Assembly: GCA_044892525.1 (NCBI GenBank)
Contig: CM097885.1
Location: 23,190,001 to 23,254,000 of the forward strand
Origin: Schmidtea polychroa
Taxonomy: Eukaryota
Length of the DNA: 64,000 bases
Direction of reading: 5' to 3'
Position 1 is the first letter of the stretch. Every line of letters starts with the position of its first letter. This document shows, piece by piece, positions 1 through 61,753 of this stretch. The notes beneath the pieces were generated by a model. That model was not told the origin of the DNA and ran no database searches. It worked only from the letters and a program-made list of their open reading frames with translations. A program made the position numbers and the translations under genes.

Positions 1-459
1 GTAGATCGTAGCTGGATCCAATGCGAGTTGCTCGCTCAATATAAGTCAGTGTAGGGTGGATTAGAGTTTTGTGATTTGCTTACTTTAAAATTTAAATAAA
101 TTAATATCTTTGAGTTATATATGCTTAATCCGACCACATATACATATCCATAGAGATTCACTCATTCTTTGCTAATATAAACTTTTTGGCGAATTTTTTT
201 ATTCTATAAAGATGGTGTTTTTGTTGGAATTGTCACTTACCTTTTTTCGGTCTCATAGTGATTTCGTTAATTTTTCATATTCTCATGTTTTGTCTCTGGT
301 TGTTTTTAGTAATTATAACTGAAAAACCAAACTAGAAATACCTAAACAGAATTATAAAATCAATTATCCTGGAATCATGCTTGTTAACGATTTTCGATGA
401 TCAATATTTTTCCAATTGTTATATTCTTGAATTTCCCACTCAAAGTTAAAATCTTCCTC

Positions 460-1316
460 AGTAGATGGATTGGGCACCGCTAGCACAGTACCCCCCCCCC
501 TCCCCCCGTCGGTAAGATTTTCAAAAATATTCTAAGTCTAAAAGTACATTTTTTTCAAGGTCAAAGTTAAACAAAGACATATGACTCATCAAGGTCATTG
601 AAACAAAGACCATGACTCATCCAATGACTCATCAAATTTCCCAAGGTCATTTAAACAAAGACTATGACTCATCAAGGTCATTTTCAAGGTCATATGACTC
701 ATAATATGACTCATCAAGGTCAAAAAATTTTCTCAAGGTCATTTAAACAAAGGCCATGCCTCATCAAGGTCATTTTCAAGGTCACATGTCTCATACCATG
801 ACTCATCAAGGTCATTTTCAAGGTCATATGACTCATCCGATGAGTCATAAAAATTTTCAAGGTCATTTAAACAAAGACCATGACTCATTCAAGGTCATTT
901 TCAAGGTCATATGACTCATTCAAGGTCATTTTCAAGGTCATATGACTCATTCAAGGTTATTTCCAAGGTCATTCTCAAGGTCATATGACTCATACTATGA
1001 CTCATCAAAAAATTTCAAGGTCATATGACCCATACGATGACTCATCAACATTTTTCAAGGTCATTTTCAAGGTCGCATGACTCATCCAAGGTCATTCTCA
1101 AGGTCATATGAGTCATCGCGATGAGTCATCAAGGTCATATTATTATTTTTAAAAATATTATTATTTTTATTATTATTTTTAAAAAATATTATTATTTTTA
1201 ATTTTTTCAAAGTTCCCGTCAACGAAAATTAATAATCGATAGCTCATTTTAAAGCTCAATCCAAGGCCTTTCGAATGAGCCATATATCTTGTTATTAAGA
1301 TTATTATTTCTAAAGA

Positions 1317-1377
<61 letters not shown>

Positions 1378-1555
1378 CTATATACACCGAGTCTATATAC
1401 TCCGTGTCTATCCGACAAAATATTTTGTCCCCCTATGGGTAATGCTCACAAGGGTACTGGTCACGCTCAACAAATCAACAAATCAACAAAACATACATTT
1501 ATTTAAACAATAAAATAATGTAAAATTAACAAAGGTAAACTAAATATTGATGTAC
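460..1555 (+). repeat. Left TIR of Polinton A with TGACTCA/CAAGGTCA arrays and an (ATT)n tract
   Basis: Reverse complement matches 17046-17843, with a different number of repeat units. Confidence 0.93.
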
Positions 1556-2001
1556 TACTATTCGCAGCAATATTGTTAGAAATTGGTAACGATGAATTGA
1601 TTTTCAGATATTCTATTGATCCTTTGATTGTTTGAATTTCTCTTAATAATAATTCAATCTTTTTTAACAAATAATCATGCTTCTTATCAATAATTTTCAT
1701 ATTCTTTTTATTTTCAGCAATAGAGTTATTGAAAACCTCAATATGATCAATCAATTTAATTTTTATATTTTGTATATATTCAAATGATAGTTCATAACTG
1801 TTTTCTAAATTCTCCAATCTTTGAGATATTCTTTTTCCTGGATGCTTTGACCATTTTGGTTTATCGAGAATATATAAAATATCCATCAACTTGGCAGTAT
1901 TCGGACAAACACATTGATTTATTAAAAGACTCCACTGTTATTGTTGTATTGTGTGAGCACACACTCGTTATAATAATTAGCAATATGAATATAGTTTTCA
2001 T
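1503..2001 (-). pseudogene. Frameshifted signal-peptide / coiled-coil / hydrophobic-tail protein
   Basis: ATG at 2001 gives MKTIFILLIIITSVCSHNTT...; a 1-nt frameshift near 1865 joins ORF 1503-1889, which ends NSSTSIFSLPLLILHYFIV. Confidence 0.6.
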
Positions 2002-2106
2002 GGTGTATCAAATCAAAACCTTTCTTTTACATTTATAGTCTATCAACCAATCAAAATCATACAGTATTAGTATAAATAAAACATCATATTTTAAATTATT
2101 GTAAAA

Positions 2107-2621
2107 ATGTCTAATTTTATGGAAAATCTTTTAAGAGAACTCGTCAACAAGAATATTATGGAAAGCCTCTGTTTCCTGGTCGATCGGACCGAAAAGATCA
2201 TAGAAGGTAATCACATTGATTATGATAATGTGATCAATTCCGATTGTCTCGAAACGAAGAAATTCTATTTTAATAGGATTTTTAACTACCTATAAGACGA
2301 GGAGATGAAGTGGACCCGAATACTAGTAGGGTTCGCTTATATGAAGATAATAATTGAAAAAAGTCTATGGGACTCCGAGCACTATTATCAGTGGTCTCAA
2401 GAAGTAATACTTTTATAATCTATATTTTATTAATATTTATTTTCTAGATAATCAAGTCAAAGTTTCAGCCATGGATTGAAGCCAATGGCGGATGGGGCGT
2501 GCTGAATCGACTCGCCAGAAATGCAAAGGAATTAGATCAACAGAAAATCAAATTTAAAAACTATATTAAACTTGCAACAGGTGTTGCTATTTTGTATGTT
2601 TTATGTCGGTTTTTTAAATAA
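2107..2621 (+). pseudogene. Bcl-2 family protein, two exons (intron 2404-2447), in-frame TAA at 2293
   Basis: BH1-like DEEMKWTRILVGFAY, BH2 PWIEANGGWGVL, C-terminal anchor LATGVAILYVLCRFFK. Confidence 0.85.
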
Positions 2622-2698
2622 AAATTAATATAGTTATTTTGTTTGATTTTTAAATAAAATTTTAAATAAATTTACAAACACTAATTAACTAAGATTTA

Positions 2699-3084
2699 TT
2701 AATTAACACATTCGCAGTCTTCATCTCCACATTTCATTATATTTTCAACGACATGATCAATACAATCATTCGTAATATTATCTTTAGATTCATCTTTAGG
2801 TTCCTCTTTAGGTTCCTCTATAGGTTCATCTATAGGTTCATAGATTTCCTCATCAATTTCTTGAGTATCGGTTTCTTGAGTTTCTTCCTCATCATCAAAT
2901 CCTTTATCTTGACTCTCAACTAACCAGCTGATATTTAAGGAATTTGTAATAGATAATATGTCCTCAATTTTCACACCAGATATTTCTGCTAACTTTTCCA
3001 ACAAAAAGTTGATTAAAAATTCTAAATAATAAATAATTCGGTAATTAATTAATCATGTTAACCTTTTTCTGCAGTCATTTTCAT
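2699..3084 (-). CDS. Acidic hypothetical protein, two exons (intron 3022-3062)
   Basis: GT-AG splice joins MKMTAEK to the ORF in frame; E/D-rich with a Cys-rich end. Confidence 0.6.
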
Positions 3085-3212
3085 CACTTTAAAACTAAAT
3101 TATAAGTTTGTTTATAGATTTTCTTTGTTAAATTTGCATGTCATTTGCATTTATGTTGCAATTAATAAAGAAAAAAAAACAAATCTGACTAATACATTTA
3201 TTAAATATAACA

Positions 3213-3623
3213 TTAAAATATTTGTGAAAGTCTAGCAGACATAATTTTCCAAATAGGAGAATATACATCATTATTATCAACTTTATATCCCTGGATTGCA
3301 ATTGTTATATACCTATTTTCATTTTCTTTGAAACTGATTTCATCAAAAGCATCATAAAATCTTGCATATCTATTTTTGAACCATGCATGTTGATTACACG
3401 ATAGATTCGAATCTATCCGTTTAAAAACATCATCAATAGTTTTGACATCAATCATTGAAAGCGTGCCGGATAAGAATTCAAATTTAGTTGGAATTAGCTT
3501 GACTGGTGCAACCAATTTCATATTGATTTCTTCTTTCAAAAAATACATTTTGTAGTTGTGGAACATTTGAACTCGTTGTACCATTTCTTTAGGTTTTTCG
3601 GTGCTTGAAATTTTCTTGGTCAT
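3213..3623 (-). CDS. Hypothetical protein, possibly OB-fold ssDNA-binding
   Basis: Clean 136-aa ORF with CCAAT and TATA upstream and AATAAA downstream; the fold is inferred only. Confidence 0.55.
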   Translation of the reverse strand: MTKKISSTEKPKEMVQRVQMFHNYKMYFLKEEINMKLVAPVKLIPTKFEFLSGTLSMIDVKTIDDVFKRIDSNLSCNQHAWFKNRYARFYDAFDEISFKENENRYITIAIQGYKVDNNDVYSPIWKIMSARLSQIF

Positions 3624-3851
3624 CGTGAATAATGAATAAATTTAAATGTTACAGGGTTTTTATACCTTTGACTCATGCCTATCAACCAATCAGATTATAG
3701 CATGTCTTTGTTTAAATTGCATTCAAAATGCATTGATGTTGCATTGTCACATGTTCTATTATTTTTATTAATGTTTTATTATTATTAATGTTTTATTATT
3801 TCTATTATTATTATTATTATTAATTTTTTATTATTAATGTTTTATTATTTC

Positions 3852-3884
<33 letters not shown>

Positions 3885-3901
3885 TTTATTATTACTATTT
3901 C

Positions 3902-3940
<39 letters not shown>

Positions 3941-3984
3941 TATTATTTCAAATATAAAAAAGATAAAACACAATAAAAATACAT

Positions 3985-4403
3985 TTATTGGTAACCTAAA
4001 TCTACAATCCGGGAGTAGTGAAACCTTCTCAGAGTTTTCACTAACTCCCATTCGACATATCGCCGATATCGATGGGCACAGCATGAGCATCCGATGATGC
4101 ACTGGTACTCCGGCTCCATTTGTTTGATGGTTCTGTTTATCTTTATATCCCACAAGAACTGGTGAAATACCTCCATTATTCTAATTTGAGTTGTGTAGAA
4201 AATGAGGTCCGGAATTATTTCTGCTTCTCGATCCTTGATAATTTCAATAATTTGAGGATAATAATATTTTATCCTATTGATCATAACTTCTAAATATTTT
4301 TCTAAAATAATAAATAGTAAATAATGTGAAAATAAAAAAATTAAAATTTACCATAATCGTCGATATCTTTCATGAGGTTTGCAGCGCTTGGTAATTTGTA
4401 CAT
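3985..4403 (-). CDS. Hypothetical protein, two exons (intron 4302-4351)
   Basis: MYKLPSAANLMKDIDDY splices in frame into ORF 3985-4284; Cys cluster CIIGCSCC. Confidence 0.6.
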
Positions 4404-4477
4404 GGTGTTGAAAAAATGAATCCTAAACAAAAAACCGTTTGTTTAAATCAATCAATAACCAATTAGAAATTAACCAA

Positions 4478-4915
4478 TTAGAAATCGACTAATGAAATTA
4501 TCTCATTTCGAACATTGTCAACAAATTCTCTATACTCCAAATTTCTCAACCCCAGCATGACAACCTTTCCACTAGCAAACACGTTGACACAAATAGGGTT
4601 ATATTTTAATAGTCTTAGTGCTGGAAACAATTCCGGTTCAAACATACAATCACATTTTTTCGACATGTTATATAGATTGATACTATGTCCCATATCCATA
4701 GTAACGGTAATTGATTGGATTGTAATATTATTTATTCGATATTGTAATTTATTAATATCCAAAGGTTTCTTACATCCCATGATTCTGCATTTACCAGTCT
4801 TGAAAAATATTATCGGATATTTCCCACTTCTATCGATAATTTGCTGGGGTTTCCCTGGTGGGAACCTCATATTCGATACATCAAAATTTCCTCGATAATT
4901 TATATTTGCTAACAT
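4478..4915 (-). CDS. TATA-binding-protein-like protein (two TBP repeats)
   Basis: FEPELFPALR...VNVFASGKVVMLG and IIFFKTGKCRIMGCK match the TBP repeat pattern YEPELFPGL...LIFxSGKxVxTG. Confidence 0.88.
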   Translation of the reverse strand: MLANINYRGNFDVSNMRFPPGKPQQIIDRSGKYPIIFFKTGKCRIMGCKKPLDINKLQYRINNITIQSITVTMDMGHSINLYNMSKKCDCMFEPELFPALRLLKYNPICVNVFASGKVVMLGLRNLEYREFVDNVRNEIISLVDF

Positions 4916-5014
4916 TATTAAATCATTTATGAAAATTAGTCTTTATATATAAATTGAGCACGAGTTCATTAAATCATCGAATATAAACAAATACACATTT
5001 ATAAAATCTTTGAA

Positions 5015-5641
5015 ATGGAATTAAGAAATGATGCTGTATACCAAATCGTTGGTCCGAGTGGTAGTGGAAAAACATTATTTGTTTGTAAATTACTAAAATC
5101 CAATTTATTCAAATCAAAATTCAACAGGATTTATTGGCATAGGGGTGCTGATGAAGAACATGGATTAACTCAATCAAGTTTCTGTAAATTAAAAAACATG
5201 AAAATAGTAAAGGGATTTGATAAAAACTGGTCCAGCCGATTAAAGAAGGGTGATGTCATTATTATTGATGATTTGTATCAAGAAGCTAATAAAGAAAAAG
5301 ATTTTAATAACTTATTTACAAAGATCAGCAGACATGTCGATGTAACAGTTATTTTCATAACACAAAATCTATTTCATCAAGGTGGGGCACATCGAACACG
5401 TAATTTAAATGTACAGTATTTAGTTATTTTCAAGAATCCTAGAGATGCAACAGTGATTGATTTTCTTGCACGTCAAGCATACCCTAACAATCGTAATTTT
5501 CTTATCAGTGCATTTCAAGATGCTACAAAAATACCTCATGGATATATATTTCTTGATTTCACACAACAATGTCCCGATGATTTACGAGTAAAAACAGATA
5601 TTTTCAACCCAAAAGGTGCCATGGTTTATAAACAAAGTTGA
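5015..5641 (+). CDS. A32/FtsK-like packaging ATPase
   Basis: Walker A GPSGSGKT, Walker B IIIDD, SRH and ITQ motifs. Confidence 0.93.
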   Translation: MELRNDAVYQIVGPSGSGKTLFVCKLLKSNLFKSKFNRIYWHRGADEEHGLTQSSFCKLKNMKIVKGFDKNWSSRLKKGDVIIIDDLYQEANKEKDFNNLFTKISRHVDVTVIFITQNLFHQGGAHRTRNLNVQYLVIFKNPRDATVIDFLARQAYPNNRNFLISAFQDATKIPHGYIFLDFTQQCPDDLRVKTDIFNPKGAMVYKQS

Positions 5642-5659
5642 AAACCTCTATGAATAATA

Positions 5660-5857
5660 ATGTTTCTAAAAGCAAGGGTGAAAAATATTAGGAAATTAAG
5701 AAAAAGTATTAGAAAGACTATTAAAGTTCCAAAGGTTCCACCAACAACTAGTTATACACCATCTAAAAAACTTGTAACTGAAAATTTCTCTGCAATGAAT
5801 CTTATTTCGAAAAATCCTAAACCTAAACGTAAAACCCGTAAAACCAGTAAAAAATAG
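5660..5857 (+). CDS. Small highly basic protein (candidate core protein)
   Basis: K/R-rich 65 aa within the structural cassette. Confidence 0.5.
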   Translation: MFLKARVKNIRKLRKSIRKTIKVPKVPPTTSYTPSKKLVTENFSAMNLISKNPKPKRKTRKTSKK

Positions 5858-5892
5858 TTAAAAATCATCGAAGTTTTCCATTTTTTAATGCA

Positions 5893-6159
5893 TTGTTAAA
5901 GGCCCCGAGTATGAAAAGAATGAATATATTGCAATCATTCCCAAATTTTGTTGTCGATGATTTACTCAATATTATACTTAAAGTAGTCAAAGGCAAAATT
6001 AAAATCAGTAAACATAGGAAACCATTATTATCTTTAGTAAATAATAAAAATCGTAAGCAAATGAGGAAAATTATATATAAACAACAAGGTGGATTTATTG
6101 GTGCCTTGATACCTCTGGCATTATCATTATTAGGTGGAGTTGTAGGAAATCAATCATAA
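5893..6159 (+). CDS. Basic protein with adenovirus pX-like hydrophobic tail
   Basis: Ends QQGGFIGALIPLALSLLGG; the start is uncertain. Confidence 0.6.
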   Translation: MLKAPSMKRMNILQSFPNFVVDDLLNIILKVVKGKIKISKHRKPLLSLVNNKNRKQMRKIIYKQQGGFIGALIPLALSLLGGVVGNQS

Positions 6160-6220
6160 ACAATGGGTGCTAATCCTTCATTGCCCGACATTAAATTTAA
6201 TTTTAAATCTTCTTGTTGTA

Positions 6221-6594
6221 ATGGAGAAGATTTGGACGAACCCAGAAGACGAAGCCGGTTTCGGTGGAGTGGCAAAATTAAACAAAAGAGTTCCGAATTC
6301 GAAAAAAGAAACCCAGATCAGCTTGCGTACAGTTTGAACAAACGATGCGGAAAAGATTTCCAACAAGAGCGTATAAAACATTTGGTATTGACGATTTATG
6401 GCAAATGGATTTGATGGAGATGATACCTTATTCGAAAATTAACAATGGGAATAAATATACTTTAACATGTATTAATGTATACAGCAGGTTTGCACGAGCA
6501 ATACCAGTCAAGGCAAAATCTGCAGAAGAAATGTCCAAGGCAATTAATATTTTATTTAAAGATGGACATCCTAATAACTTGCAAACAGATTTAG

Positions 6595-6680
<86 letters not shown>

Positions 6681-7264
6681 TTAGGTAAAGAATTCACTAC
6701 TCGGTACATTCTCAATACAAAGCTGCCCATGTTGAAAGATTTAATCGAACATTGAGAGATAGATTAAAGAAATTGTTCGTGCATCAAGGTAATAAAAAAT
6801 GGGTAAATGCTTTACTGAAAATAATAACAAGTTATAATCATTCATCACATCGAGGACTGAATGGATTGAGACCGGTTGATATTACATCAAAAACACCATT
6901 ATCTAAAAAATCTGTAAAAATTGCAAAACCTAAATATAAAGTCGGTGACCATGTTAGAATTAGTAAAATTAGTGCATCACCATTTATTAAAAATTTTGAT
7001 ACAAATTGGAGTGATGAAGTCTTTGTAATTTCAAAAATAAATACTAAACAGAATCCTGTAATGTATGTCATCAATGACAATGATAATAATATTGTACAAG
7101 GGAAATTTTATGAGCAGGAATTACAAGTCATTCCTCCCCCAAAAGTATTTAGAATTCAAAAAATATTGAAAACTAAAAAGGTCGGTAAGGATAAACAATA
7201 CTATATCAAATGGCACGGTTATCAAAACCCGTCATGGATATCGTCAAAAGACCTAGTAAAATGA
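6221..7264 (+). pseudogene. Retroviral-type integrase with chromodomain; intron 6595-6684; small deletions/frameshifts
   Basis: WQMDLM, QTDLG/KEF, HVERFNRTLR, C-terminal YYIKWHGY...SWI. Confidence 0.92.
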
Positions 7265-8265
7265 ATTTTTATATTATTTTACCTAGCAATAGCTGTCCAC
7301 TTATTCATCCAGATAATAAAGCCAGCAAATTCAGGGTCAATCTTCAAAATCCGATATATTTGGATAATAGCTGGGAAGTTGCTCTGTTGGATTTTACATT
7401 TGTATACCAAGCCTTTCCATTTTATAGTAAGGCTAAAATTGGATACAAAAAGAATGAGTGGCAGGATAGATTATTGTCTATGATCATTAATAATGCAGAT
7501 GATGAAGTTCGGTTGTCTAATTCAACTGATCCAGCTGTGAAATTGTATATTAACCATCCATATATAGTAGTTGAATGTAAACATTATCCTTTTACTGTAA
7601 CATTTGATAGTTTGGAAATGGCAAAACGATTGGAATTAAAAACCCAAAGTCATAAAGTTCTTTCCGATAAATTCACTGTGCTACGACCGGGATATTCCAA
7701 AACTGTACAGCGATTTGAACCAATTTTCTTTACAGTTTCATATCCGGGTATAACGTCTGGTACATTTGAGTTCAAAGATAATTTATACATTTCGAAATTG
7801 GATGAATTACAGACATATTTAAAACAAAGTGGTTTATTTAAATCATTGGAAATATCAGACAGATTCAAATTCAGTTTGAATCCCGAATTTACTGAAATTA
7901 CTTTTGATGCAGATCTAATAAAAACATTAGGATTATCAAAAGCAACATATGCTCAAGATGATCAAGGTACCCTAGCTCCGAAAATAATTAAACTTCACCA
8001 ACAAATGTTCATCTATAGTAATATTGTTGATCCTGTAATTGTTGGCGATTCTTTGGTCCCACTCCTGAAATCTGTTTGGATTGAAAAATATGAACATGAT
8101 GAAGTAGTCAATATAAATATCGATAATCCCATCTATTTACCTGTGTCAACCTCATGTATAAACAATATAGAAATAAATATACGTGATGATTCTGGTAAAT
8201 TAATCGCATTTCCAAAAGATTCAAAAACTCATTTAACATTACATTTTCGTAAAGTAGATGGCTAA
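7261..8265 (+). CDS. Minor capsid protein (penton)
   Basis: MNFYIILPSNS start; FIYSNIVDPVIVGDSLVPLL and IEINIRDDSG motifs. Confidence 0.85.
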   Translation: MNFYIILPSNSCPLIHPDNKASKFRVNLQNPIYLDNSWEVALLDFTFVYQAFPFYSKAKIGYKKNEWQDRLLSMIINNADDEVRLSNSTDPAVKLYINHPYIVVECKHYPFTVTFDSLEMAKRLELKTQSHKVLSDKFTVLRPGYSKTVQRFEPIFFTVSYPGITSGTFEFKDNLYISKLDELQTYLKQSGLFKSLEISDRFKFSLNPEFTEITFDADLIKTLGLSKATYAQDDQGTLAPKIIKLHQQMFIYSNIVDPVIVGDSLVPLLKSVWIEKYEHDEVVNINIDNPIYLPVSTSCINNIEINIRDDSGKLIAFPKDSKTHLTLHFRKVDG

Positions 8266-8623
8266 TTCGGATATTATAAGTATGTATAGTGGTAGCCAAT
8301 CTGGCGGTGAATTAACATATTTTATTGGTAAACAGTACGGATCAGGATAATTGAGAACAATTGGTAGATTTTCACTTCCTATTCTTAAACGTATTGGTAG
8401 TTTTGGTATGAAAACTGCTAAAGATGTTATTATGAATGAACAGAAAATATTACCATCTCTAAAATCAAATGCTTTAGCAGAATTAGGGAAAGTTTTACCC
8501 GGGGTTGCAGGTATGTTTCAAAAACCAGCTCCAGTTCCAGCTCATGCTCCAAAACGTAAAAGACATGGAATATCACGTATAAACAAACGAATGAAAGGCC
8601 ATGGAACTATATTTGCAAAATGA
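8258..8623 (+). pseudogene. Core-like protein with QxGG/QYGSG motifs, premature TAA at 8348
   Basis: MANSDIISMYSGSQSGGELTYFIGKQYGSG*LRTIGRF; the copy at ~39150 has Trp at the stop position. Confidence 0.7.
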
Positions 8624-9842
8624 TTTGTGGTAAATCTGAATTATGTATATTTGATAGACCGTCGCCCCAGGCTGTAATAGAATTTGGGGCGTTTGAGGAA
8701 GTTTTTCCAATGAATTCAATTACTGATAGTAGAAATGATATAGAGTTTTATATTAATGGTTCGCAAAATGAATATTTAGATTTGAACGATACTTTATTGA
8801 CTGTTCAGATCAAGGTTATAGATAAAGATAAAAAAGCTTTGGGTGATGCTGCTGATGCAATACCGAACAATTTCATGTTTCATACTCTTTTTAAAGATGC
8901 TGTGTTGGGATTTAATAATATCAAGATTGAAGGTGGTAATAATACATTCAGTCACAAGGCTTTGATAGAAACTATTTTAAATTACAATTCCGATACTAAA
9001 AATACATATCTTACTCCAATGGGATATGCTGCAACCGACGATGAAAGAAAAAAGTGGATTAAAGGCTCAAAAACATTCACCATGTGTTCATCGTTACAAC
9101 TCGATTTTATGGATCAACCGAAATATTTGCTTCCAGGAGTTAATGTCCACATTCAATTGAAAAGATCCGATTCTGCACTAACTCTTACTAGTGCTACAGG
9201 TGCACCAATATGTCAATTAGTTGATGCAAAATTATTGGTGAGAAAAGTACGAGTAGACCCCTCAGTATTAGCAGGTCATCAATTGGGTCTTAATTCAAAA
9301 CATGCAATTTATCCATTAAAAACAAAGGAAATTGTACAATTTGCTATTGCTAAAGGTGCTTCATCAGTCTATAAAGAACAAATATTTGGTGACAGAAGAA
9401 TGCCTAATTTTATTCTGATAACATTTCAAAGTGAAGCACAATATAATGGATCATATACTGCGTCCAGCTCAATTTTCAAAAACTTTAATGTTACATCATT
9501 GACTTTGTCGAAAAATACTGATTATAGAGAAACATATATTCAAGATTTCGAGAATTACAATTTCTGTGCGACATATATGCAGAGCATTGTTAGAAATCTG
9601 GGTTATTTAGATAAAAATTTGAATTGTGGAATAACTCTAGAAGATTTTAAAAGCAAATACCCATTTTTACATTTGTTTTAGCCCCTGATTTTGATTTAAA
9701 TCAAAGTCAATTACCTCAAAATGGAAATTTACGACTGGATATAAAGTTTGCAAAAGCTATTACTGAACCAGTACATGTTATAATATATGGAGTATTTGAA
9801 AATGAAGTTCAAATTACTGCAAATAGAACAGTGTTGGTATAA
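8620..9842 (+). pseudogene. Major capsid protein (double jelly-roll), frameshift near 9667
   Basis: KSELCIF, YLDLNDT, DFMDQPKYLLPGV; the shifted tail GNLRLDIKFAK...ANRTVLV ends at 9842. Confidence 0.9.
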
Positions 9843-10241
9843 ATGTATATTGAAACACAAAAAGTTGTCATGGAGTAAGTTGTTCTTTTAAACTCTGGAT
9901 TTATTTAAGTAGTTCTGTTCAGGTCAATAAAATCGGAAAACAGATATTGGGAAATGAATTTGTTGGAGTTTTTCCTCTAAATAAAATTCCATATTTGAGC
10001 AATAATCAAGCAATAATCATCAATACGCAATCGTCTCATCTTGGTGGAGAACATTGGATAGCTATATATGTGAAACCTGGTAAAATATTAGTGTTCGATC
10101 CTATGGGTTTTTATTACCCGGCTTTGTTGATATCAAAACTACAAACAATGGGGTAATAAAACTATGTTTCAAAATCCCTTGACCCAAACATGCGGTCAAC
10201 ATTGTTTAGCTTGGTTATTGTACAAAAAATTTGATGTTTAA
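9843..10241 (+). pseudogene. Adenain-like cysteine protease, disrupted
   Basis: GEHWIA (His), VFDPMG (Asp), and QNPLTQTCGQHC (Gln/Cys) in another frame. Confidence 0.85.
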
Positions 10242-10340
10242 AGAAAAAATGTTTAATAAATTTGATGTTTAATAAATGTATCCTTTCCTTTGTTGTTGTG
10301 TTATTATTAATATTATTATTAATATCATTATTAATATTAA

Positions 10341-10377
<37 letters not shown>

Positions 10378-10403
10378 ATTAATATTATTATTATTATTAT
10401 TAA

Positions 10404-10446
<43 letters not shown>

Positions 10447-10789
10447 GTGAAAAATATTATTATTTTTTAATTAATTTTATTATTATTCTAATAAATATTA
10501 TTATTTGTAACATAAAGACTGCCTTTGCCTGAGGCATGCACAGTGCAAGTTAACAAAGGCATGACTAACAAAGGCAGTCACATGTAATTCTGAGTGATTT
10601 ACATTACATACATGCATGCGTGTGATTGGTTGAGTGATTAAAATATTCAGTGTATATGTGTGTGTCTATATTCTCATTGGCTGGGACAGGAAAATATTCA
10701 TTCTCTTTATAAACATCGACAAATCTAAAATTTGTCACAATTATTTTAAAATTTTGAAATTTCAAAATCAATTTGATTAATATTCTAAA

Positions 10790-12046
10790 ATGGAAAAGAA
10801 CGATAATAATCGAGCGTTGAGAGGTCTTTTGACTAATGGTAAATTATTATTATTTTTATTCTATTTTATTTAGATCCTTTCAACTGGTTCGCAGTTACCG
10901 AAGACGAATCAATGTTGAACGTGGATCGGATTTTCGGTAAATTTATCATTTTAATTTTTATTAAAATTAATTTTATATATATTTTAGAACCTATTATTAT
11001 TATTAGCGATGATGAAGATTTAATATTTATTGAAGAAATTAATGCCGAAGATGAATCGATTTTAAATATGGAAAATATCGGTAAATTTATCATTTTAATT
11101 TTTATAAATATTAATTTTATATATTTTAGAACCTATTATTATTAGCGATGATGAAGATTTAATATTTATTGAAGAAATTAATGCCCCAGTTAATGATGTT
11201 GGGCAAAACAAGGTTTTCAAAGAAAAAAGTAAATTTATTTTACTTTAGTATTTTATTTTTAAAAATTTTATTTTTTAGCGTTTAATTTTGATATTGATGC
11301 CGAGGAAGTGGATGAAATAAATGATTCAGATAATACCCTCACTTCTATTGAGGAGGTGGACGAAATGAATGCCCTCACTTCTATTGAGGAGGACTCTGAT
11401 TCCGATATGGAATCGAAATGTAAGACTTATTTATTTTTTATATATTTTTATATATTTCTTTAAAATTTTATAAGCACTTTTTAAATATTTTCATATTAAT
11501 TTCATTATTTTCTTAAAAACTTTTATAAATTACTTATGATGAATTTATGAAGAAAATGATTTATGAAGATAATGATTTATGAAAAAAATGATTTATGAAG
11601 AAAATGACGAAAATTATGAATTTATGTTGAAAATGAATTATGAAGAAAATGGTGAAAATTATGAATTTATGTTTGATGAAAATGATTTATGAGGAAAATT
11701 ATGTTGAAAATAATTATATGACGAATATATGATGAAAACGATTTATGAAGAAAATTATGTTGAAAATAATTATATGACAAATATATGAATTTATGATGAA
11801 AATGATTTATGAAGAAAATGACGAAAATATGACGAAAAATATGAATTTATGATTATATGACGAAAATTATGTTGAAAATAAATATGACGAAAATTATGAA
11901 TTTATGATGAAAATTATGAATTTATGAAGTAAATACTACGTTTCTGAAAATAATGAAATTAATATAAAAATATTTAAAAAAGTGATTACGAAACTATAGT
12001 TATAAAATAATTCTTGTAGTTTGCAATGTGCATCTACATTAGTTAA

Positions 12047-12094
<48 letters not shown>

Positions 12095-12169
12095 CTGACC
12101 CTTCTACTATAGTCTACAGTAAGCATGTAGCTATATAGTAGTCTGCAGTGAGCATGCAGCTACTTCTCT

Positions 12170-12243
<74 letters not shown>

Positions 12244-15200
12244 CTTACTCGTCTAATATTTAACATATTCATATAATAATAATCTGACCCATATACTAAA
12301 ATCTCTCTAATATTCTCTCGAATATATTAACCTATTTTCTATAAGGATTTATCATCATTTGTTATATAGTTCATTTGAATTAAATAACAAATGATGATAA
12401 ATCCTTATCGATGTAACAATTAATAACAATTAGAAAAAGAGAATAAAACTTTAATTTTATTATTTAACAGGTAGACTATACCCAAATTATTGTCAATCCT
12501 CAATTGGACATAACGATAAATGTCATCGCACCATGAAAAAGTATTACAGAAAGACGTTTAATTCAGTCAACTTTTTTATATGCCCCAAATGCGTGACTAG
12601 CGAAAAAATACAATATAGGGAATTTTTTAATAAACATCATAGTCACTTAGGGCAATTTTCGATTTCAAAAAATGTTTTATTTAAAAAAATAAATAAAAAT
12701 AAAAAAAAATTACAAAAAAATTTAGAAAAAAATATTATTAAAAAAAATATTAAAAAAGAAAAAACAGATACTATTAAAACAGATACTATTAAAAAAGATA
12801 CTATTATTATTAAAAAAGATTTAAAAAATATTAAAAAAAATATTATAAAAGAAAAAACAGATACTATTAAAACAGATACTATTAAAAAAGATACTATTAT
12901 TATTAAAAAAGATCCTATTATTATTAAAAAAGATTCTATTAAAAGACCTGCTGGTTTAATTAAAAATTATATTCCTAATAAATTATCGCGACCTGAAGTG
13001 ATAGTCATCAGCAAAGATGAATGTGTAGCTTCAACATCTTTCACACAACACGCACCCATTACACAACACGCACCCATTACACAACAAGAAGTGATAGTCA
13101 TCAATGATGAATGTGTAGCTTCAACGTCTTTCAACATATGTCAAATAGGCGGCTCTTTGTTTGAACCTATGGTTGAATCCGATTTGAACGGATCGCGAAA
13201 AACTTTAAAATTGGATATTAGAAATCAAAACTTGGTAAAAATAACCCTAACATCAAAAATTGAAGAAAGATTAATAGAGGAAATAGAAAAGATGGGCAAT
13301 GTAAAAATTCAATTTACAATTTTAATTAAATTTGAAAAAGATGGGGAGATCCGGGATAATTATTTTTCAAACAATGCGCAAGTTTTTTCAGCAAATTTTA
13401 TAAACGAGGGGGTGAGCAAATTAAATGAAAAGATTGAGCAATTCACCTATTTAGGAAGCGGGTGGCGCGTAATGAATATTTTAGAGATAGATTTTATTTT
13501 AACGAAATACGCACCCGTTAGTAGATTATCCGGACATAGCTATATAAAAACCCCATCAGCATTAAAATTAAAACATGCAATAATTAATGTAAAAAACAAC
13601 GACCATAAGTGTTTCTTATATAGCATTCTTGCACTTTTAAAAAGAGAAGAAATAGGTCGTAATCACCAAAGAGCCGCCAAATATATAGAATTTTTACCTC
13701 TATTAAATTATGATGAAAACACAGATTGCCCGATGAGGTTATGCAACATTCCCAAATTTGAAAGGAAAAATCGCGATTTAAACATGAGCATAAACGTTCT
13801 TTCGTATAATCCAGCCAGTTCTGATTGTGATATTTCTCAGGATTATGTAGCTCACCACCCTCATCTTAATATCATACATCGTTCCAAGGTTATAGATGGT
13901 AGGCCGATTTATTTATTACTTTTGAGTAATAAAGATAAATATCATTATACGGCAGTGACAGACTTGGACAAATTAATGAATTGTCATTTAAATGAAAATG
14001 TAAATGTTCAAATAAGGTGTAACTGGTGCCCACATTGTTTAAATGGCTTTAGATATAAGAATGCTTTCGATCAGCATGTTGCTCTATGCTGTAAAAATCA
14101 GACTGGCACAACCTTGTATACACTTCCTAAAAATAAGGATTTATTATTCACAGATTACGCAAAAACCGTTACACCTCCCTTCGTAATTTATGCCGATTTT
14201 GAATCGGTTTTACCAGAACATGAAACATATCATCAAATACATTTACCCATATCAGCAGGTCTTTTATTAATTAATAATTATACAAACACTAAATTTTATT
14301 ATTATTTTTTTGGACCTAATTGTATTTTGGATTTTTTGAGGAAAGTGGAGGAAATTGCTGTCACAATTGTCCTGCCATATTATGAACTCGAAGGTCATAA
14401 AGGTATGTCTACTTTGTCTTTTGCTCAGGAGCGTGCCTTTCGATCTACCACTATTTGTTATTTGTGTAAAAAAGCTATTATTAATCCTGTGAGAGATCAT
14501 TGCCATTTTACAGGTAGATATGTCGGAGCGGCATGTAGGAAATGTAATGTCTCTCGCAGGATTAATAAATTGTTACCTGTTGTCTTTCATAATTTACGAG
14601 GCTATGACCTCCACCATATTTTAAAACATGGTCTCAGTGATTTTCCCCTTTGGGAACTTAAAATTATACCTACCTCTACAGAAAAATTTATATCTTTAAT
14701 TGCATATATTAACAAATTGCCTGTTCGTTTTATTGACAGCATGCAATTTGTTAATTGCTCTTTAGCCAAAGCTGTGAAAACCTTAACTACTTTTCCGTTA
14801 ACTTCGTCTGTCTTTCAAGGGTCGATGATTCACTCTAAAGGTATCTTTCCATATAATTTCGCTACTTCTTTGGATGTTCTTGAATCGACTTTAGAATTAC
14901 CTCCTATTTGGTCTGATGTTACGGAAGATCAGTACGCTGAGGCTCAACTAATGTGGAGTCAGCATAACTGTAATAATTTGTTATATTATATGTTAATCTA
15001 CCTAAAATTGGACGTATACCTCCTCGCAGACTATTTTCAGCAATTCCGCGGTAAGGCAATTGCTTACAATGGTCTGGATCCTCTTAATTTCTACGGGATT
15101 CCCGGTATGTCATGGGCCTCAGCGCTTATGACATTAACGGAACCCATAGAACTTTTGCAGGACATGGAAATGTATAATTTCTATGAGGGAGGTATCCGGG

Positions 15201-15874
15201 GTGGGTTAACATTTGTTAACAAACATTACACGGCTACTTCAGATGATACAGAATTATTGTACATTGATATAAATAATCTGTATGGTTGGGCTCTTAGCCA
15301 AAATCTTCCGTATGGTGATTTTTCTTGGGTGAATAATAACTTAAATGATGTTTTACTTGAATGTATGAACACGGATATTGATAACCTTCCATATGGGTAT
15401 ACTATGGAGGTCGATATCGATATTCCGGAATGTATGCATGACTTTTTGAATGATTTTCCGATTGCGCCGGAAAAGTTGTGCCTGCCTAATTCAAAAGTTG
15501 AGAAGCTGATGCTCACGCATTGGCCAAAGAGGAACTATGTTCTTCATTGGAGGCTTCTCAAATTGTATATAGAATTAGGTGCGGTTGTTGTAAATATTCA
15601 TAGATGTATAAAGTTTAAACAAGGACCTATCTTTAAATCCTACATAGACACCAACACCACTTTACGATCTCAGTCTACTAGCGAGATATATAGGGACTTG
15701 TTTAAATTGTATAATAACAGTCTGTACGGTAAATCCGTTGAAAATCTGAAAAAACGAATGAATTTGAGGTTGTGTAATTCATCCGAAAAGATGATAGTAT
15801 ACTCCTCAAAGCCGACTTTCAGAAAGTCTATAAGAATCGATAACGATCTGATTGTATTTATATATACATATTGA
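10790..15874 (+). pseudogene. Protein-primed DNA polymerase B with five predicted 5' exons; C-terminally truncated
   Basis: Exons 10790-10838, 10874-10936, 10988-11080, 11130-11228, 11279-11419, 12471-15874; YADFES, FHNLRGYD, YIDINNLYG and KLYNNSLYGK present; DTDS motif absent. Confidence 0.9.
11530..11930 (+). repeat. Degenerate tandem repeat (GAAAATGATTTATGAA-like) in the large pPolB intron
   Basis: Visible reiteration of the unit. Confidence 0.8.
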
Positions 15875-16039
15875 ATAAAATTTGTAATCAGATTTTTTTT
15901 TTTAAATTTTTTAAGTATTTGTTGTTTTATTATAATTTTTATATTTAATGGTGATTTTTATATAGTCTGCAGTGAGCATGCAGCTATATCAGTATTTTTT
16001 TTATATAGTCTGCAGTGAGCATGCAGCTATATCAATCAC

Positions 16040-16088
<49 letters not shown>

Positions 16089-16103
16089 CTTTAAACAGTT
16101 TGC

Positions 16104-16134
<31 letters not shown>

Positions 16135-16147
16135 TAATAATAATAAT

Positions 16148-16214
<67 letters not shown>

Positions 16215-16363
16215 CTTTAAACAGCTTGCAAGGTTACTAGTCATGCTTATTATACATTTGATGGTTACAATTTCTACATTTTGAAAACTATATTTTGATT
16301 GGCTATCACAATTTTATAAATGTAAGAACAAAAGTAATTTAGTTATTAAGAAATTTATTACTA

Positions 16364-16998
16364 ATGATTTCTATAAATAAAACTGATGAATGTGTAACAC
16401 ATTTGGTAACTTTATTATTTTGTCAATATTTTTTTATATATACCATTTATAGCAAGGAAGTCCTACTAGAAATAAGGAAAAATTATGTCCAACCTATTCT
16501 GAAATTTCATTGAAATTTTTTAACACAGTTGAAGATTTTATAAATAATCATGATACTTACAGTGATAAGCAACTCATAAATATTTTAAAGATTTTCAAAC
16601 ATTCCTCTATTGAATATTTGTTTGATTTATTTAATTATGAGAAATCCATTTTAAAGTTATCTTGTTATTTAATGTACTTAGAAAAAATATCAGTAAACAA
16701 TGATTCACTGAATGAATACTTTTGGAGTTGTATGCATTTAAGGTTGAAACCTAGATATAGTAGATTGATTTATGATTGGATAGCAAAAACCGATTTGATT
16801 GAAAATAAGCTAACGAAAAAACTGAACGATGTTAAGAAAAGGTATTTGACTTGTTCAATTTGTAAAGAAAATCGAGTTTCGGTTTTGTATTTACCATGTG
16901 GTCATGTAATTGTTTGTTCTAAGTGTCACGAGAAGAATGTTCGCAAGTGTCAAGCCTGTTCAACACTGATTAATGAATATCATACTATATATATTTAG
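16364..16998 (+). CDS. IAP-type C3HC4 RING protein, two exons (intron 16406-16452)
   Basis: CSICKENRVSVLYLPCGHVIVCSKC...CQAC...IYI at the extreme C-terminus; the upstream ATG exon splices in frame. Confidence 0.85.
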
Positions 16999-17045
16999 TT
17001 TACCTTTGTTAATTTTACATTATTTTATTGTTTAAATAAATGTAT

Positions 17046-17199
17046 GTACATCAATATTTATTTACCTTTGTTAATTTTACATTATTTTATTGTTTAAATA
17101 AATGTATGTTTTGTTGATTTGTTGAGCGTGACCAGTACCCTTGTGAGCATTACCCATAGGGGGACAAAATATTTTGTCGGATAGACTCGGTGTATATAG

Positions 17200-17251
<52 letters not shown>

Positions 17252-17843
17252 TCTTTAGAAATAATAATCTTAATAACAAGATATATGGCTCATTCGAAAG
17301 GCCTTGGATTGAGCTTTAAAATGAGCTATCGATTATTAATGTTTGTTGACGGGAACTTTGAAAATAATTAAAAATAATATTTTTTAAAAATAATAATATG
17401 ACCTTGATGACTCATCGCGATGACTCATATGACCTTGAGAATGACCTTGGATGAGTCATAGGATGACTCAGATGACCTTGAAAATGACCTTGAAAATTTT
17501 TGATGAGTCATAGCATGAGTCATATGACCTTGAAAATTTTTTGATGAGTCATAGTATGAGTCATATGACCTTGAATGAGTCATATGACCTTGAGAACGAC
17601 CTTGAATGAGTCATGGTCTTTGTTTAAATGACCTTGAAAATTTTTATGACTCATCGGATGAGTCATATGACCTTGATGAGTCATAGTATGAGTCATATGA
17701 CCTTGAAAATGACCTTGTTGAGTCATATGTCTTTGTTTAAATTTACTTTTAGACTTAGAATATTTTTGAAAATCTTACCGACGGGGGGAGGGGGGGTACT
17801 GTGCTAGCGGTGCCCTGTGCCAGCGGTGCCCAATCCATCTACT
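17046..17843 (-). repeat. Right TIR of Polinton A
   Basis: Inverted copy of 460-1555. Confidence 0.93.
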
Positions 17844-18206
17844 TTCCTCGTATAATAAAATAACGTTTGCAGTATTTCAGTTTTACAATATCACTACAAG
17901 TAAAATTGAAAGAAAGTACTTTCAAATCAGTGACAAGATGGTTTAGGTCTATTATCACCGAAACTCGATTATTAAGTTTATTTATGATTAGCGTACACAT
18001 GAGTTAACTAGAAAGAGAAGAAATAAAGGACATTATTGAAAATTATATTAAGATTTTGCTGGCAAGATAGACATTATTAATATTATATACTTATTAAACT
18101 ATATTTACAGAAAGTATTACTAAAACCTTTTTTAACCAATATGTAATAATTTCAATTATCAAAGGAAGATAACAACATGTATTCGGTATCCATCAATCAA
18201 TTAGAC

Positions 18207-22451: not shown

Positions 22452-23578
22452 CTAATTCTTTATTTTTGAGTCCTTGTTCTCTTTAACAATTGCAAATATA
22501 GATGTGCAATAAATCAAACAATCATTTGCTGATATTCTCTTATTTAAATTATAATCCAGCATTTTGTACAATAGTGGTAATAACTTATCATTCTCATCTA
22601 TACCTAATTTTAAATGCAATTTTTTCTCCGGAATTTCAATATTGTCTATTTTAATTTCGCAATTCATAATTTTCTGTTCTTCGTCATTTGGAACGCCCAA
22701 AATTTCAAAAATCTTTATTAACTGATCAGTTTCATTTTCTCCTTTGAAGATTACATCAAATAGAATCATTTCCATGAAAACAATAGCCATTGACCAGATA
22801 TCTATCGAAAGATTATACATTTGATTTTTACATAACAACTCTGGAGCTCGGTAATATCTAAAATTTATTCATTTTAAAATTAAAAAAAAAACAATGAAAA
22901 AAAAAATTTTTAAAAATTTATATAAAATAATTAATACCTTGATCCAACATTGACTGCATTCGATGAACCGGATTCAATTAATTTTGAACATCCAAAGTCA
23001 GCAATTTTAATTAAATCTTGATCAATATCTACTAAAATATTTAGACTTTTAATGTCTCTATGTCCAAAACGTCGAGAGTGCATAAAATCTAAGGCAGATA
23101 GCAAACTAAACATGAAATATTTCCTAGTTTCATTCGATAGAATAATTTTCTCATATCGCAATCTTTGAATTAAGTTATACAAAGATTCTGGCATCAATTC
23201 CATTACTAAACATTGTTTTATACCGTTTTTTGTTGCGTAATTAAAATGATATTTTAAACTAAGAATATTTCTATGACGATCACTAAGTAATGAATGGATT
23301 TCTCTTTCTCGACCGTTTCTATCACTTCTTTTTATGGCCAATATTTGAATCTTTTCTTCATCCAATGAATATTTTGTAGGCAATATTTTTACGTAAGCAG
23401 CAAACACATTTGCGAATGTTCCGGAACCAATATCTTTAATACATTTGACTTGCAATAGAACCTCGGAATTAGAATGTATCACATAAGATTTATATCTGTT
23501 TGAAAATTGAGAAAATGTATTTGTTGTGATTTGACTATGCGTTCTACTGAAATTTGATCGAAAACTGTATACGCTCAT
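22452..23578 (-). CDS. Divergent GSK3-like CMGC Ser/Thr kinase, two exons (intron 22858-22937), 348 aa
   Basis: GSGTFANV, AIK, HRDIKSLN, DFG, spliced SRYYRAPEL, IDIWS. Confidence 0.88.
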
Positions 23579-33952: not shown

Positions 33953-35179
33953 CAAAACGTGAATATGCCGATAGTAGAAAATCAATCAAGTAATATTATC
34001 AAAGCACACAAACCTATCTGTGTGTAAAGTTTTAATGTTGCAGAGAATAATAACTTTTATATAGAATTGAAAGTGTTAGAAATAAATTAAACACACAAAC
34101 AACAATTATCAAAAAATGCATGTAAACTTTCGATACGTAAAAATATTTCATGGAATATTTAATTGTATTATTTTGGAAAAAAGGCAGATTAAAATAAAGA
34201 ATTCAATGCCAAAGACATTGCTGAATTCAAATTTGTTAGAAATATAAGAAAATAAAGAGAAAAACAGTAAATGATGTAAATGAATTTCATTTTAAATGTT
34301 TATTATGAATGCCAAAATATTAATTTAGCTACATGATTTAAAAATTTGGAGCGAAATATTTTAAAAAGTCAAATAAAACCTAAAACATTGTATTTGCCAC
34401 TTTAGTCCAAAAATGGATAAATAAGTAAAAAATATGTGTCTAATAATATAAAACATAAAGGTTCAGTTTAAAAAATAAATATAATTCACTTTAAATTGCA
34501 AAAACTCCAAGAAAAAACAAATTCAGAAATTTTATGAAAAAGCTGATGACAAGTCATGAATCATTCATATGTTTGCACAAAAACCTGTATTATAGAAGTT
34601 TTTATTCCTTATCATCATCCTAATATTTATTTTCAAGTTAAAATTAATTTAATATTTCCTTAGGAAATTTCTGTCAAAACCTATTGTGCATAAATTGTAC
34701 ATTTTATTTATAAGTTTTAAAAATATAAAATTAATAAGGAATCTTACAAATTGACAAAAACCGAATGATAAATTCTATTATTTGAATTTTGTCTAAATTC
34801 GTAGATTTCTCTCGAAATGTATAAAAAATAGATATTTTTGAATTTAATTAGTTTTTTAAATAAATAATTGTTCTATCTTATTTTAAATTGAAATATTTCC
34901 ACAAATATGATAAATAATTTTCTGAAAATGTAGAAAAATTAATAGTAAAATCCTGGAATCGAATATTTTATGATAACAGATTATTCATCACGTTGATTAT
35001 AGAGTGTATCTCAGCGGAGTTTGGTCTATCACCTGTATGTGTTAATTTCCTTTTGCTATATATTATGTATATGATATATTATGTGTATGGTGATCAGTAC
35101 AATGTTTGTGTGTATATTGCATTTTTGTGCATTTTACTGATATTGCTCATTTTCGAGATTTTCAAAATGTATTGCCCGC

Positions 35180-35406
35180 TAGATCATGACTCATTTCCGA
35201 GAATTTCAAAAAGTATATGCCTTCTAGATCACTTAATAATATTTTAAAAATTGATGAATCATCGAACGAGTCATTGTCTTTTTCCAATGAGCTTGATGAG
35301 TCATCGAATGAGTAATATGCCCTTGAATGTTTCATAGCCTTTGTTTAAAATTTTATAAATTTTTTTTACCAGGGGAGGTGATTTAGCGGCAACACTTCCA
35401 TTTACT
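35180..35406 (-). repeat. Orphan degenerate Polinton TIR
   Basis: TGACTCA/TGAGTCA motifs, G-run, end CCATTTACT resembling the CCATCTACT end of element A. Confidence 0.65.
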
Positions 35407-38400: not shown

Positions 38401-38743
38401 TAAATATTCAGTTTGCGAACAATTAATATACAACTCAATATAATTTCTACTATCAGTAATTGAATTCATAGGAAATACTTGCTCAAATGCCCCAAATACA
38501 ATTACAGCCTGGGATGATGGTCGATCAAATATACATAATTTAGATTTATCACAAATCATTTTTCAAATATAGTTCCATGTCCTTTCACTCGTTTGTTTAT
38601 AAGTGATATTCAATGTCTTTTACGCTTTGAAGCATGAGCTAGGGTTGGGGCTGGGTATGTATCTTTTTGAAACATACTTACAACCCATGGTAGAACTTTC
38701 CATAATTCAACTAGAGCATTTTATTTTAGGGAAGGTAATATTT

Positions 38744-44769: not shown

Positions 44770-45121
44770 AGTAGATGGTAGTGGCACCGCAAAACCTTGG
44801 GCCCGCAAGACCACATACGCCCTCTCCCCCGTGGAAAGAAATTTTTTTTAATTAAAATTTTTTAGAACAAATACAATGACTCATCCGATGAGTCATCAAA
44901 TTATTATTATTATTCAAAATATTATTAGTGGTCTTGCGGGCCCATGGTTTTGGTCATGCAACAAGTTAGTGTTCCCATCATCCGATTATATGAACCGATA
45001 GCTTATTTTAAAGCCCAGTGCAAGATCTATCTACTGATATATAAATATTATTATCACTATTATTTTATACACGGGGTTTTATAGTGGAGCCCTTGGTTTT
45101 GCTGTGCCACTACCATCTACT
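44770..45121. mobile_element. 352-bp miniature element with Polinton-type termini
   Basis: 27-bp TIR AGTAGATGGTAGTGGCACMGCAAAACC; internal motifs shared with the element A TIR; no TSD seen. Confidence 0.75.
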
Positions 45122-46826: not shown

Positions 46827-47060
46827 ATGGATGAACACGATAATATTTTACGCGCCATGATGGCAGGAGAGAACAGTAAATTATTTTATTTTTATTTATT
46901 ATTTTAGTGAATTTATGGTATGAAGTCACCGAGGCCGACAACTATAATCAAGATCTGCCAATTATTTTATTAGTGACGATGAAGAAGATCTTTTATTGAG
47001 TAAATTTATTTTTAAAATTTAATTGAAATTAAAATTATTTAGTAGATCAGCCTATTAAAT
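46827..47060 (+). pseudogene. Fragment homologous to the spliced pPolB leader of element A
   Basis: 49-nt exon 1, 32-nt intron 46876-46907, NLWYEVTE...PII.ISDDEEDL. Confidence 0.75.
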
Positions 47061-47099
47061 TAGGGTAACATGTGGACCCAGGAGCAAAGGAAATTACGT

Positions 47100-47664
47100 C
47101 ACTACCCCGGGGGAGGGGCTAAAAAATTTTAAAATTTTTAACGTCAAATTTTAAGGTCAAAGTCGATTTTAGGCCAGTTTAAGGTCAAATTCAGAGGTCA
47201 ACGTCGATTTTAGGTAATTTTAAAATCAAAATTTAAGGTCAAATGGCTTTTTAGGCCAGTTTAAGGTCAAAATATTTAAACAAATACATATTACATAACA
47301 AAGACATATAACGTCACAAAGACATTTTAGGGAACAAAGACATATGAATCATCAATTTAAACAAAGAACTATTACGTTACAAAGATATTTAAGGATTAAT
47401 GACATATGAATCATCATTTAAACAAAGAACTATTATGTAACAAAGATATATTACATAACAAATTCATATTATGTAACAAAGGCATGACTCTTCATTTTAA
47501 ACAAAGACGTATGAGCCATTATATTTTTTTAATTTCCAAATAAGGTCAAATAATTTCCAAATAAGATCAAATAAGGCCAGAGTTTCAAGCAAGGGTATCA
47601 TTCGAGATGTCTATCCTCTACCAATTATTATTATTATTATTATTATTATTACGCGCGCTGAAAA

Positions 47665-55691: not shown

Positions 55692-55708
55692 TATTTTAAC
55701 ATTTTAAA

Positions 55709-57118: not shown

Positions 57119-57129
57119 GTCGACAAGCC

Positions 57130-57921: not shown

Positions 57922-57936
57922 TTTGTTTATTATAAA

Positions 57937-58506: not shown

Positions 58507-58528
58507 TACCATTTTTGATACCATTAAA

Positions 58529-59410: not shown

Positions 59411-59432
59411 ATACGAAGTTTTAAAATACAAA

Positions 59433-61745: not shown

Positions 61746-61753
61746 TTATTAAA

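Follow-up and report, generated by a model that had tools for sequence, protein, structure and literature searches.

We analysed a 64,000-nt stretch of Schmidtea polychroa DNA (the window) and found that both terminal inverted repeats (TIRs) of a Polinton/Maverick element within it are filled with an array of short words resembling three kinds of animal factor site. On balance we favour the reading, drawn from sequence, that this array is a host-factor enhancer (bZIP/AP-1, monomeric nuclear receptor and Sox-type HMG) acting on the CCAAT+TATA promoters of accessory genes. Constrained cores set against variable spacers, together with the recurrence of a module at promoter-like sites inside the element, support a putative protein-binding cis-regulatory array. 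From these patterns, and from known consensus sequences, we infer the identities of the factors, their binding, the enhancer activity and its trigger.

The element is a decayed copy (Table 1). A sequence-only reading made earlier had taken its termini for TIRs and was right to do so: the two ends (460 and 17843) both open with AGTAGATGG, giving AGTAG termini, and TTCCTC flanks each of them. TIRs beginning with AG and a 6-bp target-site duplication are Polinton traits, as is the set of ATPase, protease and double jelly-roll capsid also found here. The capsid has 145 homologues, its look-alikes are double jelly-roll proteins, and its atlas score is 0.98 to clusters with PF21738 on 14–16% of members. 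The integrase was recognised through rve (E 1.5e-5) with rve_3 and Chromo, all under the Pfam cut-offs. Within the 1113-aa ORF we saw by eye apparent exonuclease and polymerase motifs; Pfam, NCBIfam, PHROGs, PDB and phage records gave no polymerase profile or structure for it, and endonuclease-VII-like matches only. Decay shows in the early end of the capsid ORF relative to its homologues and in several genes that lie in pieces. Length (17.4 kb), TIRs of 0.8–1.1 kb, the 6-bp duplication and the presence of ATPase, integrase, protease and capsid all recall animal Polintons/Mavericks (ranges from an excerpt of PMC8097293). Unlike those, this element has TIRs that are a mosaic of three factor-site modules, accessory TBP, Bcl-2-like and RING genes, and intron-split genes. 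The acidic ORF upstream of the polymerase ORF is cut by at least five short GT-AG-like introns (10790–11460), and TATAAAC lies before or near several core genes. The GC block of the right terminus contains a 16-nt tandem duplication (17800–17831) that is absent from the left terminus.

Table 1. Features of the element and of other Polinton-type pieces in the window
Feature	Position	Strand	Basis or remark
Left target-site duplication	454..459		TTCCTC
Polinton/Maverick, decayed copy, 17.4 kb	460..17843		AGTAGATGG starting both ends; ATPase, integrase, protease and capsid matches
Left TIR	460..1555	+	GC block at the terminus, then motif array, AT/TAT tract and conserved inner block
Outermost 96 nt, free of array modules	460..555	+	putative core origin and integrase end; NFI or octamer match 0
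Left array	556..1138	+	21 AP-1-type (18 exact), 25 receptor-type (23 exact), 5 Sox-type
Coiled-coil-like ORF, 127 aa	1503..1886	-	weak sub-cut-off matches only
CCAAT box and TATA-like box per strand	2031..2078	.	between ORF 1503-1886 (-) and Bcl-2-like gene (+)
Bcl-2-like gene, two pieces, intron likely	2107..2621	+	stop in piece 1; TIGR00865 E 2e-4 (piece 2), sub-cut-off
136-aa ORF	3213..3623	-	one 97% homologue cluster; no Pfam or atlas match
Promoter-like site: TTTAAACAAAGAC (junction at 3712), CCAAT, AP-1 site, TATAAAA	3657..3716	-	upstream of ATG 3623
Element-encoded TBP-like protein, 145 aa	4478..4915	-	PF00352 E 3e-15
Packaging ATPase, A32-like	5015..5641	+	PF04665 E 2e-7
Retroviral-type integrase with chromodomain, two reading frames	6345..7264	+	rve, Chromo below cut-off
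351-aa ORF, candidate minor capsid	7210..8265	+	from position alone; no family match
Major capsid protein, broken near end	8620..9681	+	353 aa vs ~407 in homologues
Adenovirus-type (C5) protease fragment	9854..10156	+	PF00770 E 2e-5
Promoter-like site: two AACAAAGGC, AP-1 half-site, two CCAAT, TATAAAC	10552..10716	+	before intron-split acidic ORF, upstream of polymerase
Candidate protein-primed family B polymerase, 1113-aa ORF	12533..15874	+	motif-level assignment
CCAAT+TATA module	16296..16322	+	upstream of RING gene
RING-finger (IAP-type) ORF	16672..16998	+	PF13920 E 3e-10
Right TIR	17046..17843	-
Right array	17399..17741	-	15 AP-1-type (13 exact), 13 receptor-type (12 exact), 2 Sox-type
Right target-site duplication	17844..17849		TTCCTC
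Degenerate Polinton-type terminus	35150..35404	-	short decayed array
Gene-less 352-nt piece	44770..45121		AGTAG at each end, target duplication absent; a Sox-like module and an AP-1 pair kept
Divergent-relative terminus	47041..47620	+	5 TAAGGTCA, 7 AACAAAG, 4 TTAYRTAA, 2 ATGAATCAT, TGASTCA 0

The left array had been described as about 18 palindromes with more than 20 receptor words and several copies of a third word, and a direct count between 556 and 1140 agreed, giving 18 ATGA[CG]TCAT, 23 CAAGGTCA (every one + strand, none −), 3 TTTAAACAAAG and 5 AACAAAG. The right repeat, said to mirror it, carries the same words on the opposite strand (13 ATGASTCAT, 12 CAAGGTCA, all − strand, and 2 AACAAAG-type in 17390–17745), but the mirror is imperfect: with one mismatch allowed the left array has 51 modules and the right 30, a difference due chiefly to block losses. 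Receptor words take the form TCAAGGTCA in 19/23 cases on the left and 10/12 on the right. Modules of 8–9 nt follow one another in mixed order with spacers of 0–11 nt and cover 434 of the ~585 nt of the left array; the arrays show periods of 12, 19, 31 and 40 nt and block gains and losses. They start ~95–105 nt from the end, and the first module differs between the two ends. Outside Polinton-type termini the window (61,602 nt) contains 3 TGASTCA and 3 AAGGTCA.

When the left array was shuffled 2000 times with dinucleotides preserved, as had been proposed, the maxima for the three words were 1, 2 and 0. Any tandem array would pass such a comparison, which makes the excess trivial and no evidence of function by itself; we therefore rejected it as functional proof and examined constraint instead. 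Strand polarity was also rejected as evidence for or against.

Mismatches between the aligned left and right arrays fall on 4/234 core positions and 8/85 spacer positions (p=0.004), where mispaired repeat units inflate the spacer count and the p-values overstate independence because array units have common descent. The non-array part of the TIRs differs at 4/442 positions; cores show no difference from this flanking divergence (p=0.46) and spacers exceed it (p=1e-4), suggesting that spacers hold older variation among units. Adjacent AP-1 pairs are separated by a 3-nt gap in 11/13 instances, filled by 8 different trinucleotides. Letters differing from the mode make up 11/33 in these gaps vs 5/288 in cores (left alone 7/18 vs 3/168), with modules called at no more than one mismatch, that is, selected by likeness. 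The sole common core change is at the centre, C/G (7/36), which leaves the same site when reversed. Spacers are not wholly free, since the middle base of the gap is C in 10/11. Clustered sites with constrained cores, an enhancer trait, are thus present in units that are not independent, and the comparative evidence comes from this single 64,000-nt window.

These substitution patterns bear on a neutral origin, in which a seed with chance factor-like words would have been amplified by slippage as a minisatellite and homogenised between the TIRs. The four periods and the block gains and losses fit such a history, as does one-strand polarity, which tandem duplication would produce. A metagenome scan for AP-1 pairs (at least 121 loci) points the same way in one respect, since unrelated repeats there hold clusters of AP-1-like words at up to 23 per kb, a fact that also counts against the enhancer. 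A soil/root repeat family among these loci (L020, L026, L028–L030, L035 and similar) reaches 11 TGASTCA per kb but lacks receptor words, with weak integrase matches at two loci; 17 proteins from the metagenome loci were tested and two gave weak integrase matches. Among the matches listed, however, no array with receptor words was seen, and each of the at least 121 loci had at most one AAGGTCA per strand in its vicinity. Substitutions at our locus, moreover, concentrate in the spacers and the tolerated centre base rather than in the cores, and the words are retained in a divergent terminus whose spacers differ, and at internal promoter-like sites. We consider neutral amplification decidedly doubtful.

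That a module recurs at promoter-like sites within the element is the strongest sign that the words may act in transcription. The window has 14 junctions in which ATG[AC] comes no more than 3 nt after AACAAA[GT]RC: the left array has 5, the right 2, the element interior 2, and three further Polinton-type termini share the other 5; the remaining 44,968 nt of the window have 0. For the interior pair 0.03–0.04 junctions were expected, two or more arising in 0/300 Markov simulations, and CCAAT+TATA modules number 4 in the element interior and 0 elsewhere with 0.36 expected, odds that are optimistic because the patterns were written after the sites had been seen. The four modules precede the Bcl-2-like gene, ORF 1886, ORF 3623 and the RING gene, with TATA boxes at 2071, 3664 and 16315 among them. 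The sole interior TGASTCA lies between the CCAAT and TATA boxes of the site at 3657–3716. The nearest candidate targets are the site at 2031–2078 for the left array and the module at 16296–16322 for the right. The sequence-only reading had proposed that the termini serve as a stress- or wound-responsive enhancer, and core constraint and module reuse lend weight to the cis-regulatory part of that proposal.

An element-encoded protein might instead bind the array, for end pairing or packaging, its likeness to host sites being mimicry or coincidence. By analogy this has some appeal: adenovirus A-repeats, 220–400 nt from the end, combine conserved cores with variable spacers of fixed length (PMC5033970, excerpt), and tandem repeats in Galileo TIRs contain sites for the transposase, a THAP protein (PMC3688188, excerpt). 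Here, too, ATGAC is common to two of the three modules, so that one protein could read both, and several ORFs of the element belong to no family. Such an arrangement seems improbable to us, given three different words that each match a canonical animal factor site, and one module recurring with an AP-1 site at internal sites with CCAAT and TATA boxes. The element segments, scanned within sets of 28 and 23, yielded no bZIP, receptor or HMG domain and, apart from TBP, no sequence-specific DNA-binding domain, though split genes could escape such a scan.

As to the host factors themselves, we take ATGASTCAT to be a full AP-1 site (bZIP dimer), TCAAGGTCA an NR5/ERR monomer site, AACAAAG a Sox-type HMG word and [AG]TAAACA the forkhead core, all consensus sequences with which the earlier AP-1 and monomeric receptor labels agree. 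The third module, previously called forkhead/Sox, contains AACAAAG in 7/7 copies and [AG]TAAACA in 0/7; TAAACA is present in 6/7, always preceded by T. The Sox half of that label would fit better, and forkhead was rejected as the best label. For the receptor word NR5A/ERR had been named. TCAAGGTCA fits that consensus, while ERR is absent from S. mediterranea, which has one NR5A and one NR5B (PMC8363021, excerpt; PMC11637366), and flatworm FTZ-F1 binds the SF-1 element (PMC8673669, excerpt). The most likely reader of this word would be of NR5/FTZ-F1 type.

If the favoured enhancer reading is correct, the array would be of the billboard type, each module a full site for a host transcription factor: ATGASTCAT for AP-1-type bZIP, TCAAGGTCA(T) for a monomeric receptor and AACAAAGRC for a Sox-type HMG box. 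Lying within the TIR, it is copied to both ends; slippage or recombination would gain and lose modules, with selection retaining the cores. Bound factors would open chromatin and drive host Pol II from the accessory-gene CCAAT+TATA promoters 0.7–2.5 kb inward. Targets would be the Bcl-2-like and RING genes, unassigned ORFs and perhaps the polymerase unit, and their transcription would form an early activation step. Two precedents pull in different directions: in baculoviruses, hrs that carry CRE/TRE sites are stronger enhancers the more sites they have (PMC13513840, excerpt), and in planarians motif presence alone failed to predict regulation (PMC10558129, excerpt). A bolder and rather unlikely version would have an AP-1 injury signal, gated by NR5-type and Sox factors, switch on anti-death and replication genes through CCAAT+TATA promoters, after which the element's own TBP would turn on the capsid genes. 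Were it true, activation, perhaps with particles, would be expected in wounded or regenerating tissue, and each copy in the genome would bring two enhancers dense in AP-1 sites to face host DNA.

Other Polinton-type pieces in the window add to this picture. The terminus at 47041 keeps receptor, Sox and bZIP-class words in a different layout and with a different end sequence, its receptor word being TAAGGTCA in place of TCAAGGTCA, and each of four patterns (receptor as TNAAGGTCA, 4 copies) exceeding 2000/2000 shuffles. A 40-nt block aligns it with the left array (score 47, shuffle maximum 40), and because of this alignable block the two are related by descent; convergence of two TIR types was rejected on the same ground. 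Its lack of any exact TGASTCA counts against the enhancer, as does the retention of an AP-1 pair in gene-less pieces that have no gene to drive.

Retention of this kind would be expected if the array were an auxiliary replication element, with host factors bound to it stimulating protein-primed initiation at the adjacent terminus. The gene-less 352-nt piece keeps its Sox-like module besides the AP-1 pair, and the array of the main element lies ~100 nt from both ends, on the right as well, where the closest gene is oriented toward the TIR. In adenovirus, initiation is reportedly stimulated by ATF/Sp1 sites of the distal ITR (PMC2685984, excerpt), and baculovirus hrs are both origin and enhancer (PMC13513840, excerpt). 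The AP-1 pair of the 352-nt piece is, however, near one of its two ends only, the two ends of the main element open their arrays with different modules at different distances, and module number varies from 51 to 30 to fewer in relatives. A module is, in addition, reused at promoter-like sites distant from the ends. Adenovirus-like recruitment of NFI and Oct-1 to the origin, the other suggestion of the sequence-only reading, fails in its strict form: NFI or octamer matches (by consensus pattern) were found in 0/5 termini, and the array sits ~95–105 nt in. A replication role appears to us unlikely as the main explanation, and it may coexist with enhancer activity.

Folding of the displaced strand during replication, through the palindromic modules, was a further candidate. 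The segment 460–1140 does fold better than 20/20 shuffles (z −4.7), but palindromic words in any repeat would do the same. The ensemble is also diffuse (centroid −27.5 vs minimum −68.4 kcal/mol), and the receptor and Sox words are non-palindromic and all face one way, making a single-strand structure a very remote prospect.

Beyond the window, 20/24 sequencing runs listed, from 7 studies, contain the stretch or part of it, with no RNA run among the matches listed. Capsid searches of viral contigs gave 0 relatives from 1 and 31 candidates, and motif scans of viral contigs picked out 4 and 11 loci that all lacked the array, one set consisting of coding repeats. Prokaryote genomes had one match each at 80 of 120 loci listed, and the capsid search there returned a single 1.5-kb contig with no ends. 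Among the matches listed from viral contigs, metagenomes and prokaryote genomes, no relative with its ends was found.

Viral repeats loaded with host factor sites are already known from baculovirus hrs, adenovirus ITRs and polyomavirus control regions, the last of which carry AP-1 sites (10.1101/2025.07.20.665756, excerpt), and this precedent limits the surprise. The hrs, which serve as enhancer and origin, resemble our array in being 390–880-nt repeat arrays whose copy number varies and which carry CRE/TRE sites for host bZIP factors (PMC13513840, excerpt). They differ in being dispersed, in having a 30-nt palindrome centre and in working with viral IE1, whereas our array occupies the termini, has AP-1-type in place of CRE-type sites and intersperses them with receptor and Sox words. 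Assignment to the hr class was rejected, as ~72-nt units with a 30-nt palindrome are replaced here by 8–9-nt modules in a terminal position only. Adenovirus shares linear DNA with terminal repeats, host sites beside the core origin and fixed-length spacers near the end (PMC5033970, PMC2685984, excerpts); by comparison our array has no NFI/Oct-1 match and ~50 modules instead of a few, at both ends and in variable number and order. Some adenoviruses likewise lack NFI (PMC2685984, excerpt). Galileo/foldback elements have long TIRs of repetitive make-up in which a short protein-binding word recurs many times (PMC3688188, excerpt), but those sites bind the element's own THAP domain, whereas our element has a retroviral-type integrase, no THAP match and three words. 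AP-1-dependent regeneration-responsive enhancers also combine AP-1 sites with cell-type factor sites, the AP-1 sites being required in those tested (PMC10232395, excerpt); they are single-copy host sequences with a tested injury response, while our putative enhancer is on a mobile element.

In the literature searched (mostly non-subscription, without Repbase) we found no description of such a factor-site array in Polinton TIRs. TIRs have been treated as origins (10.1101/2023.10.16.562556, excerpt), and putative factor sites are mentioned for Polinton-TIR-derived repeats of C. elegans (PMC11414722, excerpt). Hydra Maverick transcripts fall in an early Jun/Fos cluster, together with many other transposon families (PMC13465017, excerpt), and vertebrate Maverick particles were unobserved as of PMC8097293 (excerpt). 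In planarians, Polintons are targeted and repressed by piRNAs and acquire active marks during differentiation (PMC8532177, excerpt), and the planarian host, whose DNA is AT-rich, therefore offers a ready setting. A cis-code that can be read from the TIR points to candidate triggers and cell types for Polinton activation and, if the family is abundant, would mean that AP-1-rich modules are spread through the host genome.

Several further observations concern the rest of the window. A second Polinton type (54399–63905) forms a compact intronless cluster with a DJR capsid, a PLA2-integrase and an A32 ATPase; it has none of the CCAAT+TATA modules of the first type, and a candidate AGTAGT end upstream of it at 52624 has 0/4 array words within 1.8 kb. 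At 52624–52870 lies a 247-nt piece with AGTAGT inverted ends, which has neither a target duplication nor any of the array words. A block of ~90 nt from the inner TIR occurs at 1437, 17155, 47766, 48545 and 50720, three of these outside the main element; an Rfam search gave 0 matches, this block included. A 712-aa ORF (41091–43229, − strand) joins a weak Bcl-2-like segment to a Monjiviricetes-type fusion glycoprotein domain and adjoins a decayed inverted Polinton copy (37720–40555); its Bcl-2-like part gave no alignment with the Bcl-2-like piece at 2107–2621. A divergent protein kinase gene in two pieces, with no longer homologue at E 1e-20, is located at 22452–23578 (− strand). Finally, hAT-family transposase ORFs are present at 31264–32870 and at 18623–20545, the latter an uninterrupted 640 aa lying 780 nt from the right end.
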